This document shows positions 1 to 12,679 of a stretch of DNA of 23,305 bases, piece by piece; positions within the stretch are counted from its first letter, which is position 1; each line of letters begins with the position of its first letter. The notes below the pieces were generated by a model. That model was not told the DNA's origin. It saw only the letters and a list, made by a program, of their open reading frames with translations, and searched no databases. This stretch comes from a virus: UHGV virus genome UHGV-0105868, one strand, 5' to 3'. A program made the position numbers and the translations under genes.

Positions 1-19
1 TTAGCAAGGTTGTGTACAT

Positions 20-586
20 TTGTACACAATTGCAGAGAGAGGAAATGACATGCGTCGCGCTAACGATCCGCAACGGCGAGAAAAAATTATCCAGGCCACG
101 CTGGAGGCGGTGAAACTTTACGGAATACATGCTGTTACGCACCGCAAAATTGCTACCCTTGCCGGGGTACCGTTGGGATCGATGACCTACTATTTTTCAG
201 GAATTGATGAGTTGTTACTGGAGGCGTTCAGCAGTTTTACTGAGATCATGTCCCGGCAATATCAGGCATTTTTTAGCGATGTTAGTGATGCTCCGGGCGC
301 ATGCCAGGCTATCACCGATATGATCTACAGCTCACAGGTTGCAACGCCGGATAACATGGAGCTGATGTACCAGCTCTACGCGCTGGCTAGCCGAAAACCG
401 CTATTAAAAACGGTAATGCAAAACTGGATGCAGCGCAGTCAGCAAACGCTCGAACAATGGTTTGAACCCGGAACCGCCCGCGCGCTTGATGCGTTTATTG
501 AGGGGATGACGCTGCATTTTGTCACCGACCGTAAGCCGCTATCGCGCGAGGAGATTTTGAGGATGGTTGAGAGGGTTGCAGGGTAG
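20..586 (+). CDS. TetR/AcrR-family transcriptional regulator (host flanking gene)
   Basis: 188-aa ORF with an N-terminal TetR-type helix-turn-helix (…[30 protein letters not shown]…). It lies outside the att repeats, so it is host DNA. An internal Met at codon 11 (MRRAND…) could be the real start. I could not assign a gene name from memory with confidence. Confidence 0.8.
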
Positions 587-609
587 TAGATAAGTTTTAG
601 ATAACAAAA

Positions 610-631
610 AACCCATTTATGTAAATGGGTT
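610..631. other. Perfect 10-bp-arm hairpin (aacccattta-tg-taaatgggtt) downstream of the TetR gene
   Basis: Inverted repeat read directly in the sequence, 24 bp after the stop codon. It is not followed by a clear T-tract, so it is an atypical terminator at best. Confidence 0.4.
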
Positions 632-708
632 AATGAAAACAATAAGTTAGATTAAAAACAATAAGTTAGGTTGGTGGTCAGTGGTGGTTATTACGGGGTA
701 ATGCCAAC

Positions 709-730
709 CGCTGCCGCCACTTTGTCGCCA
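709..730. repeat. attL core (cgctgccgccaCtttgtcgcca)
   Basis: Matches 23256..23277 at 21 of 22 positions. Sits about 335 bp beyond the 3' end of int, as expected for P2-type attachment sites. Confidence 0.6.
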
Positions 731-736
731 CTTGTT

Positions 737-1006
737 TTACCTTAAACGCCAGGGGCCTCTATCTTCAATCTGTTCGACTAACCCCTCCTCTTCTAGTTCA
801 CGCAATAGTGCAACAACCCAATATTGTTGGTTCGAACTTGTTGCTTTCCGTTTTTCTCCCCAATCGAGGCCGCTTAGACGAAATACCTCAGCTTGCTTAA
901 CGCCGTTGCCGTTTTTTTGGGCATCTGGGTGAGTTTTAAGTACGGATAAAGCCAATTCTTTGGCTCTGTTGCGCAATTCCGCTCCCTGATGCTGAAACTT
1001 ATTCAT
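737..1006 (-). CDS. Hypothetical 89-aa protein in the int-proximal att arm
   Basis: ORF with a GGAG about 8 nt upstream of the ATG. The translation has protein-like composition. Not recognised. Confidence 0.4.
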   Translation of the reverse strand: MNKFQHQGAELRNRAKELALSVLKTHPDAQKNGNGVKQAEVFRLSGLDWGEKRKATSSNQQYWVVALLRELEEEGLVEQIEDRGPWRLR

Positions 1007-1064
1007 TGATAGTGCTCCATGTGAAAAAAAAGAATATTAGCTCAACAGGGCAAAATACGCATTT

Positions 1065-2096
1065 TCAAAAACTTGCTATTGATGTTGGTAGTGTTGCCAG
1101 CGGATTAAACCGTAATGCAGTTTCCAGGTGATCCGGTGCCAGATGTGCGTAACGCATAGTCATTTTTATATCGTGATGCCCGAGAATTTTTTGTAAGGCC
1201 AGGATATTTCCACCCGACATCATGAAGTGCGCCGCAAACGTATGGCGCAGAACGTGTGTCAGTTGACCGCGAGGGAGCACGATAGACGTTTTTTCCATCA
1301 CGGATAAAAATTGAAAATAGCAGTCTGTAAAGAAATTGAACCCATCAAGCGCCATGATCTCTTCGTAAAGCTCTTTACTGATAGGGATGCTTCTGTTTTT
1401 CTTCCCCTTCGTTCTTACAAAGGTAATTCGGTATTTGGTCACCTGTGAGCGGGTAAGATTTACGGCTTCACGCCAACGTGCGCCTGTGCTTAAGCATATC
1501 TTAACTACCAGTGCCAGAATTGGGTCCTGACGTTTGCAATCAGCCAGCAATTCAACAATCTGCTCATGGGTAAGCCATGCCATCTCTTTTTCTGCGATGG
1601 TGAATTTTCGCATGTTCTCCAGTGGGTTTGGATACGACCATTCGCCCAGGCGGGATAGTTCGCTAAAAACACTACTTAGATAGCTTTGCTCCAGGTTAAT
1701 GGTGACCGGGCTGGCTCCTTTCTTCCATTTCTCGCTGAAGTAGATCTCACCTGTCAGGCGTTTATCTCGATAGTGGGCAAACATTTTAGAGGTGAGATTG
1801 GTTGCAAGAGGATTGCCTAGAGCGTCAACCATCAGCAGCAATTTGTCATAGACATGCTGCCCAGCAGTCAGAGATTTACCATGTAATTTGAACCATAGCT
1901 CAACCACGTCTTTCAGGGTTCGACGATCCACTGATTCGCCCAGCCAGGGCTTTGATTCGGTTTCTTCCATCGTGTGACGCTCAAAAGCCAGAGCTTCGCC
2001 TTTGGTGGCGAATTGTTTACGCACACGACGCCCACTTCTTCCGGCGGGGTAACATTCGCAAAGCCATTTCCCTGTGGTGAGTTTTCGTACTGCCAT
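1065..2096 (-). CDS. int: Tyrosine integrase (P2/186 Int-like)
   Basis: 343 aa starting MAVRKLTTGKW… (the track ORF extends further upstream, which I rejected). The C-terminus carries the tyrosine-recombinase motifs …HVLRHTFAAHF… and …MTMRYAHL…. Position next to the att core and the repressor fits. Confidence 0.9.
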   Translation of the reverse strand: MAVRKLTTGKWLCECYPAGRSGRRVRKQFATKGEALAFERHTMEETESKPWLGESVDRRTLKDVVELWFKLHGKSLTAGQHVYDKLLLMVDALGNPLATNLTSKMFAHYRDKRLTGEIYFSEKWKKGASPVTINLEQSYLSSVFSELSRLGEWSYPNPLENMRKFTIAEKEMAWLTHEQIVELLADCKRQDPILALVVKICLSTGARWREAVNLTRSQVTKYRITFVRTKGKKNRSIPISKELYEEIMALDGFNFFTDCYFQFLSVMEKTSIVLPRGQLTHVLRHTFAAHFMMSGGNILALQKILGHHDIKMTMRYAHLAPDHLETALRFNPLATLPTSIASF

Positions 2097-2284
2097 AAAA
2101 AATGCCCTCCAGTAGAGAGCATTTTTACTGTATGTATAACCAGTGTCAATGTATGAAATCCTACGACCATACATCTCACTGAAGCCATAATGAAGTTGGC
2201 TATTCTTTTTGCTATGTGAGCATGTAACTTTTGCGGTTAACCTGCGGCTCATTTTTATTTTAGACGCAGATATAAAAGCAAAAG

Positions 2285-2476
2285 TTATCGTGAGTTTTTA
2301 GTACAGATTTTTTTGGATTTACTAATAGTTCCATCATTGCAAACGAATTTGCCATCTGAGGTACAGTGAGAAACACCTCCCTTTTTCCCTGAGCAGGGAT
2401 AATTTCTAGCATAGGTAGTTAGTGGGTTTAATAACAAAGAACATGACAAAACCACAAAAAATACCTTACCAAGCAT
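2285..2476 (-). CDS. Small secreted/lipoprotein-like Cys-rich protein (63 aa), AT-rich moron
   Basis: Strong RBS (GGGAGGAAACT then ATG). N-terminal signal-peptide-like segment [23 protein letters not shown]. The predicted mature part has four Cys and many Lys/Gly. Sits in an AT-rich int-cI intergenic region. Confidence 0.5.
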
Positions 2477-2491
2477 AGTTTCCTCCCGGTA

Positions 2492-3061
2492 CTATTTAAC
2501 ATACTTGACTGTTAAACTTATAATTTTACCAATTATTTCAATGTCTTCTATCTTGCATTCGAAGGCTCTGTTTCCACCCTCGACGAAGATTCTTCCACCG
2601 GGTAAACGAGTAATGTCACGGATCGTTATTTCGCCATCAATACTTATTACCCATTTACCATCACGTATATCATCAAATTCTTTATCACAAATAAATTCAG
2701 AATTGTTATCTGTGATGACAAAAGGTTTTTTAAACGTAGAGGGTAGAAATCCCTTATCAAAAATATAAAAACCGTCTTTCTGCAATGCTCCATCAGACAA
2801 TAAATATTTTTCTACTTCTATAGTATTTGTATTTGCTGATGCTTGCTTTGAACCATGCCCTGTTGTTAGCCAATTAAGCGAGGTGCCCGTTTCAAGGGCG
2901 CACTGGATTACCCAATCTGCTGGAAAAATATCACGCATATAGCGCGTTGCCATGGTGCTCTTAGAAACACCTAAATGATCACAGAGAGCCTGACGGGTAC
3001 CGAACCCATATGCTTCAACTAAACGTTCTATGGCTTTCTTACCGCCGCTATTGAAATCCAC
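2492..3061 (-). CDS. cI: Phage 186 CI-type immunity repressor (HTH N-terminal domain, non-peptidase C-terminal domain)
   Basis: HTH region …ERLVEAYGFGTRQALCDHLGVSKSTMATRYMRD…CALETGTSLNWLTTG… resembles 186 CI as I remember it. No S24 peptidase motif was seen. I prefer a GTG start at 3061, preceded by GGAGGA (189 aa); the open frame extends to a GTG at 3148 (218 aa), so the start is uncertain. Confidence 0.7.
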   Translation of the reverse strand: MDFNSGGKKAIERLVEAYGFGTRQALCDHLGVSKSTMATRYMRDIFPADWVIQCALETGTSLNWLTTGHGSKQASANTNTIEVEKYLLSDGALQKDGFYIFDKGFLPSTFKKPFVITDNNSEFICDKEFDDIRDGKWVISIDGEITIRDITRLPGGRIFVEGGNRAFECKIEDIEIIGKIISLTVKYVK

Positions 3062-3088
3062 AAGTCCTCCAAAGAAATCCAAAATTCG

Positions 3089-3117
3089 TTGACAGATTCC
3101 AAAAGCGATCTTAAAGT
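3089..3117 (+). promoter_or_regulatory. Candidate rightward lytic promoter (pR-like): -35 TTGACA, 17-bp spacer, -10 TAAAGT
   Basis: Perfect -35 hexamer at 3089..3094 and a 4/6 -10 hexamer at 3112..3117, about 90 bp upstream of apl. Found by sequence inspection only. Confidence 0.3.
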
Positions 3118-3206
3118 TGAACCAGAAGTGTTCTTTTGGAGCCTTCACTACTAATCACGACAAACAACGGCTCGCCACAAGCCATATCTAGAAGGAATGT
3201 TGCCTT

Positions 3207-3410
3207 ATGACACCTAACATTTCAATTACTCTGAATACACCACATGTCACAATCGAACGTTATAGCGAACTGACTGGCCTTTCTATTGATACGATTAACG
3301 ACATGTTGGCTGATGGCCGACTACCTCGTCATCGTCTTCGTAAAGACAAAAAACGTGAAAAGGTAATGATTAACCTGGCTGCTCTGACTGTTGATGCTTT
3401 GTCTGCTTAA
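3207..3410 (+). CDS. apl: Apl/Cox-like excisionase / lytic-switch regulator
   Basis: 67-aa ORF divergent from cI. HTH-like …[22 protein letters not shown]… and a basic tail. Position matches apl of 186 / cox of P2. AGGAA RBS. Confidence 0.65.
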
Positions 3411-3474
3411 TAGACGTCTATTTTCACAATAAGACGCTGAGTTCGATTTTGCGATAAGTTCGGAGTTGAAAACC

Positions 3475-3984
3475 ATGTTTGATTACCAAGTTTCCAAACA
3501 TCCACATTTTGATGAAGCCTGTCGTGCATTCGCACTGCGCCACAACCTGGTGCAACTGGCAGAACGTGCAGGCATGAATGTGCAGATTCTGCGGAACAAG
3601 CTGAACCCAGCTCAACCTCATTTATTAACCGCACCAGAAATCTGGCTGCTTACCGATCTGACTGAAGATTCAACGCTGGTAGACGGTTTTCTGGCACAGA
3701 TTCATTGTCTGCCATGTGTACCGATTAATGAGGTGGCAAAAGAGAAACTGCCACATTACGTCATGAGTGCAACCGCAGAGATCGGGCGTGTTGCTGCAGG
3801 TGCGGTATCTGGCGATGTAAAAACCAGTGCAGGTCGTCGTGATGCCATCAGCAGCATTAACTCTGTAACACGACTGATGGCACTGGCTGCTGTTTCATTG
3901 CAGGCCCGTTTACAGGCTAACCCTGCGATGGCGAGTGCAGTTGATACCGTAACTGGCCTCGGTGCTTCATTCGGTTTGCTGTGA
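3475..3984 (+). CDS. cII: CII lysogeny-establishment activator (186 CII-like)
   Basis: 169 aa from [24 protein letters not shown]…, closely resembling 186 CII as I remember it, with the same length. The track ORF starts three codons earlier at 3466. Confidence 0.85.
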
Positions 3985-3991
3985 GGTGCTT

Positions 3992-4288
3992 ATGCTGACG
4001 AAAGAACCATCATTTGCATCGCTGCTGGTAAAACAAAGCCCGGCAATGCACTACGGTCACGGCTGGATCATGGGTGAGGATGGTAAACGCTGGCATCCAT
4101 GTCATTCACAAGATGAATTGCTGTCTGAATTGACCACGAGGAAACGGAGAAAGTCAAAATGTATGCAGCGGAAAGTGAAGTGGTTTATCAGTTTCGTTAC
4201 AGAGGGGAAAGTTATTCAGTACCTGAAGATGATTTGCTCTGTTGTTATCCGTCGTTGTCGGGCGATGGCAGTTACTTTTTCATGCTAA
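3992..4288 (+). CDS. Hypothetical early protein (fil/dhr position); 3' boundary uncertain
   Basis: ATG preceded by GAGG. The first ~55 aa (MLTKEPSFASLLVKQSPAMHYGHGWIMGEDGKRWHPCHSQDELL…) look protein-like. The 3' third overlaps the next ORF in another frame and looks like low-complexity read-through. Confidence 0.4.
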   Translation: MLTKEPSFASLLVKQSPAMHYGHGWIMGEDGKRWHPCHSQDELLSELTTRKRRKSKCMQRKVKWFISFVTEGKVIQYLKMICSVVIRRCRAMAVTFSC

Positions 4289-9631: not shown

Positions 9632-10750
9632 ATGTATCTTTTCAAGTATTACCGTCCGGACTTCTTCTTCGAGAAAGCTATTCGTTATAATGAATTATAT
9701 TTTTCCGCTCCTGCGCAATTGAATGATCCTAATGATCTCAATATAGATTATCGTTTTGATAATAAATTGAAATTATGGGATATTTTATTGCGTTCTCCTT
9801 GCGATAAATCCTATGAAAATTTGAGTCACATATTAGATTTGAGTAATTTGAAGATACATAAGGGATTGAATCGTATTTTTAGAGGAAAAAAAATAAAAAG
9901 TAGCATTGAGTCATTAGATAGCCTGTTTGACTCACACGTTGATGAGATACGTAAGATCATAAATGATGGTTTACTACCTATCAATGTGATTAATTCCGCT
10001 ATTTATGGGAATATTCCTGAACCACGCCAATTTTTGGTCTCACTTTGCGAGAACAGTATCAAAGAAAGGTTGTATAGGAAAATAGTTCCTGCAGTATTCA
10101 GTGTGTCATTTTCAGCTAATGCGTTAGATCGTATGATGTGGGCGCATTATGCTGCAGGCTTTAGTGGTTGTGTTGTGATTTATGAAACGCAGGATTTTAA
10201 TATTAATGGCGTGCCACATCCTGGAATGAAGCTAAGAGAAAATTTATTTTCATCAGATAAATTTAATTTTCCAGTTAAGCAAATAAAATATAGTAATCAG
10301 GCTAAAGAGGTTTCACTTCTAGACCCAAGCGCAAATGTTGCAGAGTTATTTTTAACTAAAAATAGATTTTGGAGATATGAAGCTGAATATCGAATGTTTA
10401 TTCCAGAGGCAAATGCAGGAATAGGGAGTGAGCGGCATGTTCAAAGACGCGTAAATCGAAATATTGGACATATTTTTCATCATGATGCTAATGTTGTTAA
10501 AGGGATCATTTTTGGTCCTAGAATGTGTGAAATGAAAAAAGAAAGCATATGGAATTGTATCAAGTCAAATATGGAGAATTCAAATTCAACAATATGTTAT
10601 TTTTTTGACTCTGAGTTATCAGCATCAGGAAAGATTACTATTTCAAAAGGGCAACGAGCGGAAAAAATGAAAAATTTCCCTTTGTTCAGGAACAAGTTAA
10701 GTCAGACGGAAATGGCTAAAGTTTTGAAGGAAATTGGCATTACGAACTAA
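9632..10750 (+). CDS. AT-rich cargo protein (372 aa) with DUF2971-like N-terminal motif; candidate defence / abortive-infection gene
   Basis: Long ORF in a visibly AT-rich region, unlike the GC-richer phage backbone. N-terminus LFKYYRPDFFFEKAIRYNELYFSAPAQLNDPNDL and a later …SFSANALDRMMWAHYAAGFSGCVVIY… resemble the DUF2971 family signature as I remember it. Function unknown. Confidence 0.8.
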   Translation: MYLFKYYRPDFFFEKAIRYNELYFSAPAQLNDPNDLNIDYRFDNKLKLWDILLRSPCDKSYENLSHILDLSNLKIHKGLNRIFRGKKIKSSIESLDSLFDSHVDEIRKIINDGLLPINVINSAIYGNIPEPRQFLVSLCENSIKERLYRKIVPAVFSVSFSANALDRMMWAHYAAGFSGCVVIYETQDFNINGVPHPGMKLRENLFSSDKFNFPVKQIKYSNQAKEVSLLDPSANVAELFLTKNRFWRYEAEYRMFIPEANAGIGSERHVQRRVNRNIGHIFHHDANVVKGIIFGPRMCEMKKESIWNCIKSNMENSNSTICYFFDSELSASGKITISKGQRAEKMKNFPLFRNKLSQTEMAKVLKEIGITN

Positions 10751-11005: not shown

Positions 11006-12679
11006 ATGGAAAAATATCAAGATGAGGAATATGTAGACGATTTAACTGAGCGTGTTTTTCTCATTAAGCAACAACTGGAAGCGGGAAAACTAAAAATAGC
11101 TCATCATCTTGTAGAAGGTTTTATTGAAAGTTTTAAAAGAATAAGGCTGCGACAGGATGGTAAAGTTGACCCTTCTACTGTTGATGGCAGAATAAGGGCT
11201 ATGGGAGCAGCGGTTAATCACTTTTTAGAAAGAGAAGATATAAAAAACAAATACTCTATTCAGGACTTGCAAAGTTCTTACTTTAATATTCTTTTTAGTA
11301 ATTTTGGCGAGTTGTTTTATCTGATGAAAAAAACTAATGCAACGCCACATAAAGCATCAAGTTTTTTTTCTCAACAAGAAGAATATGTTAAGCAAATAGA
11401 AGGTGTTTTTCCTGAGTTATATAATCAGGTAATAGAGTTTTGGCAGGTAACATCCGATATTGGTGTAATACATTTGCAGGATGGTTCTCAGTTTAAAGCT
11501 AATTTTTCTGGTGACTTATTTCCTGCATTTGATGAGAATGCTGTCTCTATTGCAGGGTTGTATGTTGATACTATTTCACTTCCATGTCCTATATTAAGAG
11601 TCGGTCGTCTCTATGAAAAGTCAGATAAGGCTGAGTTTACAAGGATACTTCTGAAGCATGTCCTAACATGTATGACATATAAAGAAGTAGCGCTTGAAGA
11701 TATAGAGCCAGCAATAGTATTAATTTTGCCGGATAGAAGAGATTTTGAAACTGAGAGCAAAAAAAATTTGATGAGTTTTTGTGAGCCTTATGCTCTGACT
11801 CATGCGCAATATCTCTATGATCGACGGTTCGAAAGCTACGATGAATTTCAAGATTTTAGTTATTCGATGAATGATATTGATGCTGTTCTTAAAAATATTA
11901 AGAGAGCAGATAGACTTATTTTTGATACAGCATGGGGGCTAAATCCAAAAACTCAATTAGAAAAACTACTATCTGATAAAAAAAGAATATCACGTAATGT
12001 TGTTGGTGATCATGCTGGAATGGAGGTTTTCCTTTCCTGCATTGGAAGAATGCCGCAAGCCTATTCAGCAAAATGTAATGCACAAGAACTTGGTAGTACT
12101 CCATATATAAATGCAGACACATCTTGGCTCTATTATACTTGGCTTATTGAGTACGAATCTCTTAATTTTGATGTCAATGATATTGAACTAAAAAATTTGC
12201 ATATGGTTCATGCGTTATCTGCTGGTATGCAAGATGGTTTTTCATGGTTAGGAAATGTACCGGTCAATAAAATAATTGAGTTGAGACGTAACAAATTGAT
12301 GGAGGATGTAAGATCCATCTTATCAAATGGTGTTGACTCTTTAATCAATTCTTCGGCAGAGAGCTTTTCGAGGACAACGCAAAAAGTAATTGATAATGTA
12401 GACCGGGCTTTTATTGAACATCAAAGGATTCTTGCAAAAGCCCAAAAAGAGAAATTGAGAATTTACGGACTGGATGTCCTACCATGTATCGCAAATGGTG
12501 CTATAGCAATTGCTGGAGCGCTGACTGGCAATACTACTTTAGCGGCGTTAAGTGCAGGCCTTGGAGTAATAGGTATTCCGAGTATTAGTGATATCAAATC
12601 TAAATTTAAGCAGAGGCAAGAGAAGCTTGATGCCTATCAACGTTCTGTTACAGGTATACTCTTTAGCCATAAATCTTAA
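11006..12679 (+). CDS. AT-rich cargo protein (557 aa), unknown function, C-terminal hydrophobic Gly/Ala-rich segment; candidate defence / abortive-infection effector
   Basis: Long AT-rich ORF with a GGAG RBS. No motif recognised in the mostly soluble-looking body. Near the C-terminus is a hydrophobic stretch, …LPCIANGAIAIAGALTGNTTLAALSAGLGVIGIPSI…, long enough for one or two membrane helices. Confidence 0.8.
   Translation: MEKYQDEEYVDDLTERVFLIKQQLEAGKLKIAHHLVEGFIESFKRIRLRQDGKVDPSTVDGRIRAMGAAVNHFLEREDIKNKYSIQDLQSSYFNILFSNFGELFYLMKKTNATPHKASSFFSQQEEYVKQIEGVFPELYNQVIEFWQVTSDIGVIHLQDGSQFKANFSGDLFPAFDENAVSIAGLYVDTISLPCPILRVGRLYEKSDKAEFTRILLKHVLTCMTYKEVALEDIEPAIVLILPDRRDFETESKKNLMSFCEPYALTHAQYLYDRRFESYDEFQDFSYSMNDIDAVLKNIKRADRLIFDTAWGLNPKTQLEKLLSDKKRISRNVVGDHAGMEVFLSCIGRMPQAYSAKCNAQELGSTPYINADTSWLYYTWLIEYESLNFDVNDIELKNLHMVHALSAGMQDGFSWLGNVPVNKIIELRRNKLMEDVRSILSNGVDSLINSSAESFSRTTQKVIDNVDRAFIEHQRILAKAQKEKLRIYGLDVLPCIANGAIAIAGALTGNTTLAALSAGLGVIGIPSISDIKSKFKQRQEKLDAYQRSVTGILFSHKS

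Follow-up and report, generated by a model that had tools for sequence, protein, structure and literature searches.

Among the systems that bear on the locus described here are the rexAB genes of phage lambda, accessory genes that lysogens transcribe together with the repressor, and Sim of phage P1 and Sp (spackle) of phage T4, which are small, are exported and stop a superinfecting phage at the envelope. The gene analyzed in this work, positions 2285..2476 on the minus strand of the UHGV virus genome UHGV-0105868 (23,305 nucleotides; this whole stretch is referred to as the window), resembles them in its setting only, by analogy, and no sequence or fold relation of its family, YdcA, to rexAB, Sim or Sp-type proteins was detected in the PADLOC or PDB searches. 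Two other described proteins are closer. One is the chromosomal YdcA of Escherichia coli: deletion of ydcA was found to sensitize E. coli W to 300 mM 3-hydroxypropionate, and the chromosomal gene has been reported to be acid-induced under YdcI (PMC7642389). The other is Dis2 (Lpg0823) of Legionella pneumophila, an accessory subunit of the Dot/Icm cap that is located near the outer membrane and pinned by disulfides (PMC8486379), and that has been described as almost dispensable, restricted to Legionella and lacking structural relatives (PMC8486379, PMC12716638). The best overall explanation of the window gene, in which we place middling confidence, is that it encodes a prophage-borne member of the YdcA family that is expressed in the lysogen, exported and active as a module in the envelope.

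By every sequence criterion that could be applied, the product belongs to the YdcA family. It scored 115.8 bits against the NCBIfam equivalog model NF007463 (PRK10040.1-2; cutoff, 93), with residues 5-63 aligned to positions 1-58 of the 58-position profile, matched phrog_6000 with an E value of 1.9e-34, and falls into a 90%-identity cluster of 355 members whose precomputed annotation is PF27300, the Pfam YdcA family. The same annotation is found on 58 of 64 homologues; a Pfam scan of the open reading frame (ORF) with a copy lacking the PF27300 model returned a chance match alone (E 0.075). All columns that are invariant in 64 diverse YdcA domains are present in the window protein. It shares with K-12 YdcA (b1419) and the family at large the signal peptide followed by a PCSGxKGGxxHC-type domain, the four invariant cysteines and the length of 57-63 amino acids. 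K-12 YdcA is encoded between hokB and cybB, whereas the window gene forms part of a cI-int operon; the window protein is 54% identical to the K-12-type protein of the hokB-cybB locus and, with 68.5 bits, does not pass the K-12 equivalog model NF007462 (PRK10040.1-1; cutoff, 118). On these scores it is a paralogue, not an orthologue, of K-12 YdcA. The identical sequence is already in RefSeq under the YdcA family name, so that the protein is known as an object, and the homology search proposed in an earlier note on this DNA, made from the sequence alone, leads to an annotated family and not to an anonymous novelty.

The matches to curated family models, together with the differences between natural alleles, rule out a chance ORF. 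Three alleles differ from the window copy by 11 synonymous and 1 nonsynonymous changes (ratio of nonsynonymous to synonymous rates [dN/dS], 0.02), 11 and 3 (0.07), and 14.5 and 4.5 (0.07), respectively. Over the same allele pairs the dN/dS of the adjacent cI gene is 0.15; the constraint on the YdcA gene is thus the tighter one, and purifying selection on this genuine gene is strong. It is present in 648 of 5426 complete E. coli genomes. The family profile retrieved 457 clusters at 50% identity among 1.8 billion representative proteins, and relatives were found in no fewer than 229 GTDB species, the majority of them Gamma-, Beta- and Alphaproteobacteria, as well as in 505 IMG/VR contigs; the IMG/VR copies that were retrieved are near-identical and of the E. 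coli type, adding to the counts and not to the diversity. Several apparent leads were set aside. Weak matches to lpg1681_fam (E 0.11), plant proteinase inhibitors and LDL-receptor repeats were dismissed as noise from the cysteine pattern, and nothing was found in support of the UniRef name "Conjugal transfer protein." The ydcA gene of F-type plasmids encodes a DNA methylase that shares the name and is no relative, and for the ydcA of the gonococcal genetic island, for which the paper names no product, the shared name is assumed to be coincidental.

The 5' part of the window lies in the chromosomal rcdA (ybjK) gene, and the remainder is a 186/P2-like E. coli prophage. E. coli strain p10B carries the identical stretch, in which the Prokaryotic Genome Annotation Pipeline (PGAP) has named the ORF "YdcA family protein" (coding sequence WP_000900883.1). 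The gene comprises 63 codons and a stop codon and is preceded by a Shine-Dalgarno sequence, GGGAGG, that was read directly at 2482..2487 on the minus strand, 5 nucleotides (nt) 5' of the ATG. Upstream on the same strand is the gene for a 186-type CI repressor (2492..3061, with a GTG start according to PGAP; Phage_CI_repr, E 3e-31; Phage_CI_C, E 5e-29), the stop codon of which, 2494..2492, is separated by 15 nt from the ATG of the YdcA gene. Downstream, again on the minus strand, follow an AT-rich spacer of 188 nt (2097..2284; 37% guanine plus cytosine [GC]) and the gene for a tyrosine integrase, int (1065..2096; Int_N, E 2e-32; Phage_integrase, E 6e-22). To the right of cI, on the plus strand, are apl/cox-like, cII, fil, dam and gpA genes and the morphogenesis genes. 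The ORF with a strong ribosome-binding site between int and cI that the earlier note described is therefore borne out as an intact gene. An Rfam scan of window positions 1-4000 gave nothing at E <= 1, so that there is no competing reading of the ORF as an RNA gene. A megablast search of deposited phage genomes with the cI-ORF region gave no match, and this immunity module is known from prophages only.

The GC content is 35% for the ORF, 37% for the int-proximal spacer and 33% for the C-terminal half of cI, compared with 49% for the whole window. The AT-rich character noted earlier thus holds for the ORF, but it is not confined to an insert at this point: the low-GC block spans approximately 2100 to 2900 and takes in the spacer and half of cI. 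Since it reaches past the ORF, the foreign-looking unit is the distal part of the immunity module and not the ORF alone. A near-consensus sigma-70 promoter-like site was also observed at 2496-2524 on the plus strand (TTAACA, 17 nt, TATAAT; 11 of 12 positions); it is located at the cI stop, points rightward, antisense to cI, and may be a chance match in AT-rich DNA.

A consensus scan of the minus strand detected no terminator-like hairpin on either side of the ORF, toward cI or toward int; the first such site on this strand is at 631..610, and one promoter-like site is found on it within the spacer (2149..2121). The YdcA gene is therefore likely to be co-transcribed with cI from the lysogenic promoter, in which case its product would be made in the lysogen. 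Accessory genes expressed in lysogens are typically found at such a position, in agreement with the earlier note, which expected a lysogenic-conversion gene here.

Other E. coli prophages, as well as Klebsiella and Yersinia, show the same order, in which cI is followed by a YdcA gene on its own strand after 15-49 nt. In the Haemophilus phages HP2 and S2 a 60-codon homologue, which carries no GenBank annotation, starts on the cI stop codon in an ATGA overlap. The order is retained in P2-like phages even where the identity of cI falls to 35-37%. In a Yersinia prophage, cI is 37% and int 49% identical to the window counterparts, and the mature YdcA domain approximately 90% (the last value being a hand count). 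The space between cI or the YdcA gene and int is variable. It is empty in Salmonella phage RE-2010; in phage vB_EcoM-813R9 it holds a PD-Lambda-1 defence gene (E 3e-120), and in several E. coli and Klebsiella prophages the YdcA gene is followed by a KAP-NTPase gene that matches the candidate defence family PDC-S20 (E 1e-171). Minor defence hotspots of P2 have been reported between integrase and primase (PMC13586616).

Outside this setting the family is found in a variety of places. It is common at non-phage chromosomal loci, and its phage-borne members come after the tail chaperone gene T in Moraxella catarrhalis phages and after an antirepressor gene in an Acinetobacter phage. A census of neighbours was made over 80 species, with one locus per GTDB species (L106-L185). 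The upstream gene encodes a CI repressor in 5 of 73 cases, another HTH_3 regulator in 4 and cytochrome b561 in 4; downstream there is an integrase in 6 of 68 cases, a DUF2946 protein in 6, and otherwise scattered phage genes. The DUF2946 gene, which is located directly downstream of the YdcA homologue in these 6 of 68 species, is the sole recurrent non-phage neighbour besides cytochrome b561. HP2 orf1(S) and the downstream gene of Moraxella bovoculi were considered as a conserved partner and turned out to be unrelated. There is thus no dominant neighbour, and hence no conserved partner gene, in the 80-species census, and the YdcA protein most likely acts on its own.

The N-terminal 23 residues (codons 2408..2476, minus strand) have the features of a Sec-type signal peptide. 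In the window protein the maximal Kyte-Doolittle hydropathy is 2.73 over 10 residues, there is a proline at position -6, and T-Y-A occupies -3 to -1. This region varies freely among homologues and yet in every case begins with positive charge, contains a hydrophobic core and has small residues at -3 and -1; by a simple heuristic, such a core with small -1 and -3 residues located 2-3 residues before the conserved P-C-S was found in 185 of 192 family members. Ala23, at -1, is invariant in alignments of 26 and 28 sequences. Very probably, then, export takes place through Sec, and signal peptidase I cleaves the precursor behind Ala23, which would release a soluble, disulfide-bonded periplasmic peptide. 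The signal peptide seen by the earlier note is thus well supported and conserved in the family, and of the two processing sites that it offered, the cut after TYA stands while the lipobox VLSC does not. None of the grounds that the note had listed for abandoning its case applies: the ORF has signals for translation, its signal peptide is shared across the family, and related prophages have kept the ORF.

The mature part (2288..2407, minus strand) is as basic, lysine-rich and cysteine-rich as had been described: 40 amino acids with cysteines at positions 28, 38, 46 and 58, 8 lysines and a net charge of +7, giving a predicted peptide of about 4.3 kDa with an isoelectric point of about 9.7. Across the 64 diverse YdcA domains, the invariant residues are P, C, S, GG, C, C, G, S, S and C, and the window domain contains the corresponding motifs GG, F-x-C-x-D-G and S-x-S as well as the four cysteines. 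The basic motifs GKKGG and SKSKK are conserved in the YdcA domain. An AlphaFold model built on the 26-sequence alignment (mean predicted local distance difference test score [pLDDT], 75.8) has a helix at residues 3-15 and a beta-hairpin domain, with pLDDT values of 86-88 over residues 31-50; the four invariant cysteines probably form two disulfides around this hairpin. Searches with the model found nothing significant in the PDB by Foldseek, beside a weak lead to Dis2 that is discussed below, and nothing significant in BFVD.

Clues to the function of the domain come from longer family members, in which it lies between the signal peptide, which it adjoins, and a secreted nuclease. The nucleases belong to three clearly unrelated folds and possibly, on a weak match, to a fourth: Endonuclease_NS (P0165, P0186 and P0196, plus fragments), staphylococcal nuclease (SNase; P0120), a PLD-type nuclease (PLDc_2; P0176) and an HNH-like motif (P0207; E 0.009). 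The YdcA-SNase fusion (locus L024, 4001-4669) is encoded in a 37.6-kb P2-like phage contig, beside gpD, gpU and the tape-measure gene. Other members have tandem YdcA repeats or a C-terminal tail that resembles the PBCV-specific basic adaptor motif (PF08789). This tail, CxC...CTGPRGGxYCxxxxGxKSY, occurs in betaproteobacterial YdcA proteins; its match is below threshold (18 bits compared with 20.4; E 0.003), it resembles the first half of the YdcA domain, and the window protein is without it. The repeated fusion to nucleases and the conserved basic GKKGG and SKSKK motifs suggest that the domain serves as a module for binding nucleic acid or for tethering enzymes at the envelope.

The best match of the YdcA profile among solved structures is Dis2 (7MUC and 7MUD, chain AN), with an E value of 1.7e-4 when the signal peptide is included. 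Each lobe of Dis2 has the motif C-x-K-x-GG-[VI]-x-x-C...[FL]-V-C-N-[DN]-G, which is YdcA-like, and Dis2 is likewise exported and disulfide-stabilized and lies at the periplasmic face of the outer membrane; it differs in having two fused lobes and five disulfides and in being built into a type IV secretion machine. Foldseek placed Dis2 at rank 1-2 (E 0.5; 38-44% identity), hhalign aligned the profile of the mature domain with a Dis2 homologue at a probability of 79.5% (E 1.5e-5), and that homologue carries a precomputed PF27300 match (Dis2-related proteins P0229 and P0230). With the signal peptide removed, the HMMER match to Dis2 drops to a marginal E value of 0.049. Homology between the YdcA domain and the lobes of Dis2 is probable but unproven.

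These observations lead to a tentative proposal for the mechanism. The gene would be expressed in the lysogen by co-transcription with cI, and the precursor would be exported by Sec and cut by signal peptidase I to a soluble, disulfide-bonded peptide in the periplasm. This lone peptide would be a compact basic module that binds a polyanionic ligand in the envelope, most plausibly DNA, and would thereby hinder DNA or phage entering through the periplasm, an accessory function of the exclusion type. That a stand-alone basic module interferes in this way with incoming DNA or phage is a guess that could be right but more probably is not; it is made because of the nuclease fusions, one of them in a P2-like contig, the basic motifs, the anti-phage genes in the adjacent slot and the lack of a conserved partner. 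In a bolder form, which we consider decidedly unlikely, the YdcA domain would be an unrecognized extracytoplasmic, disulfide-stapled DNA-binding mini-domain, shared by secreted nucleases of several folds and akin to the lobes of Dis2, and the stand-alone copies that temperate phages from Haemophilus to E. coli have behind their repressor genes would let the lysogen intercept foreign DNA in the periplasm.

Several points weigh against this proposal. The nuclease fusions are few, approximately 8 of the approximately 215 sequences inspected, and they would be accounted for just as well by a module whose only role is to anchor proteins to the envelope. The sole probable structural relative, Dis2, is bound to proteins as an accessory subunit of a secretion machine and is not a DNA binder, and for the chromosomal paralogue of E. 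coli the only links reported are with tolerance of acid and 3-hydroxypropionate. A literature search by name, accession and family retrieved no functional study on DNA binding, phage exclusion or periplasmic location. Co-transcription with cI is deduced from the spacing and a simple terminator scan. Finally, the search of PADLOC-DB 2.0 with the ORF protein returned no family at E <= 1e-3; the same search gave the strong PDC-S20 and PD-Lambda-1 matches for the genes that relatives carry in the neighbouring slot. With no PADLOC match, no paper on this protein retrieved in the literature search and no conserved partner gene, the superinfection-exclusion or toxin activity that the earlier note had considered remains speculation.

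The relationship to Dis2 admits another explanation, namely that the peptide is an envelope adaptor that binds a protein complex or a lipid at the periplasmic face of the outer membrane and so masks or alters a phage receptor or a secretion or uptake machine. Dis2, which binds DotC, DotD and DotK, is the top match by two independent methods, the profile search and Foldseek; the hhalign result, the PF27300 match on a Dis2 homologue and the disulfide-pinned position of Dis2 near the outer membrane (PMC8486379) point the same way, as do the tails of several family members that are like the PBCV basic adaptor motif. The weaknesses of the Dis2 match given above, together with the dissimilar architecture of Dis2, apply to this explanation as well, and we regard it as rather unlikely.

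A further explanation is that the gene is a host-fitness factor which, like chromosomal ydcA, would aid the tolerance of envelope stress from acid and organic acids without acting directly on phages. The deletion phenotype in E. coli W and the acid induction under YdcI (PMC7642389) speak for this, as do the abundance of the family at non-phage loci, such as that between hokB and cybB, and the 54% identity of the prophage protein to the K-12 type. The phenotype is a single and indirect one, without a mechanism, and the prophage copy falls well short of the K-12 equivalog model. Moreover, a role in fitness leaves unexplained the fusions to nucleases and the repeated capture of the gene by unrelated types of phage. 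This, too, appears to be an improbable account of the window gene.

That the product is a secreted cationic antimicrobial or toxin-like peptide aimed at competitors is very unlikely. It is predicted to be small, cationic and disulfide-stabilized, and a correlative study lists a YdcA-family gene among the loci specific to antimicrobial Pseudomonas protegens strains (PMC13541209); against this, the signal is of the Sec type and not a bacteriocin leader, the neighbour census gave no conserved immunity, export or processing gene nearby, carriage is constitutive, in the repressor operon and in many chromosomes, and there is no route across the outer membrane. An outer-membrane lipoprotein processed at Cys12, the other location that had been entertained, is the least probable of all: residues 9-12, V-L-S-C, are loosely lipobox-like and the closest variants from E. 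coli and Klebsiella retain Cys12, but the window sequence has Leu at -2 and does not conform to the pattern [LVI][ASTVI][GAS]C, the contexts in those variants, LLIC and LFVC, are not lipoboxes, Cys12 is absent from the Yersinia, Haemophilus, Moraxella and K-12 homologues, and a lipobox-like match occurs in only 4 of 192 family members, compared with a universal A-x-A-type signal peptidase site.

Other parts of the prophage also carry accessory DNA. The hotspot between gpA and the portal gene contains, on the plus strand at 9632-10750 and 11006-12679, genes for a DUF2971 protein that matches the PADLOC candidate PDC-S31 (E 3e-23) and for a 557-amino-acid protein with a weak DitB-like match (E 2.7e-10); both proteins are likely to be anti-phage cargo. 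Comparison with L005, a related prophage that occupies the same rcdA site, shows that approximately 353 bp (735-1087) are inserted in the window at the 3' end of int; the insertion replaces the last 13 int codons and holds an 89-codon ORF (737..1006, minus strand; hypothetical protein WP_001032044.1) for which no family match was obtained. This insertion agrees with the minor hotspot that has been reported between integrase and att. Positions 636-672, at the prophage end nearest to rcdA, comprise two tandem 18-nt direct repeats, AAAACAATAAGTTAGATT and AAAACAATAAGTTAGGTT, which adjoin a bidirectional-looking terminator hairpin at 610-631 and may be related to the attachment site or to a binding site for Int or integration host factor (IHF).

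The conserved place behind cI from E. coli to Haemophilus, the nuclease fusions and the probable link to Dis2 were not found in the literature searched. About 1 in 8 complete E. coli genomes carries this gene, within the transcription unit that maintains lysogeny, and its 40-residue module has been picked up by phages of several unrelated types. Should it only tune stress tolerance, it would be an ordinary accessory gene. The conserved placement, the fusions and the link to Dis2 do not render the finding surprising, but they are worth a cheap experiment. The peptide is small and easily synthesized. If the domain does bind DNA or block entry at the envelope, the YdcA peptides would be among the simplest prophage-encoded protection factors known; a DNA-binding mini-domain of this type would represent a new, single-peptide kind of superinfection exclusion or of interference with DNA uptake. 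It would also provide a function for a widespread uncharacterized family and for a puzzling subunit of the Legionella secretion machine.
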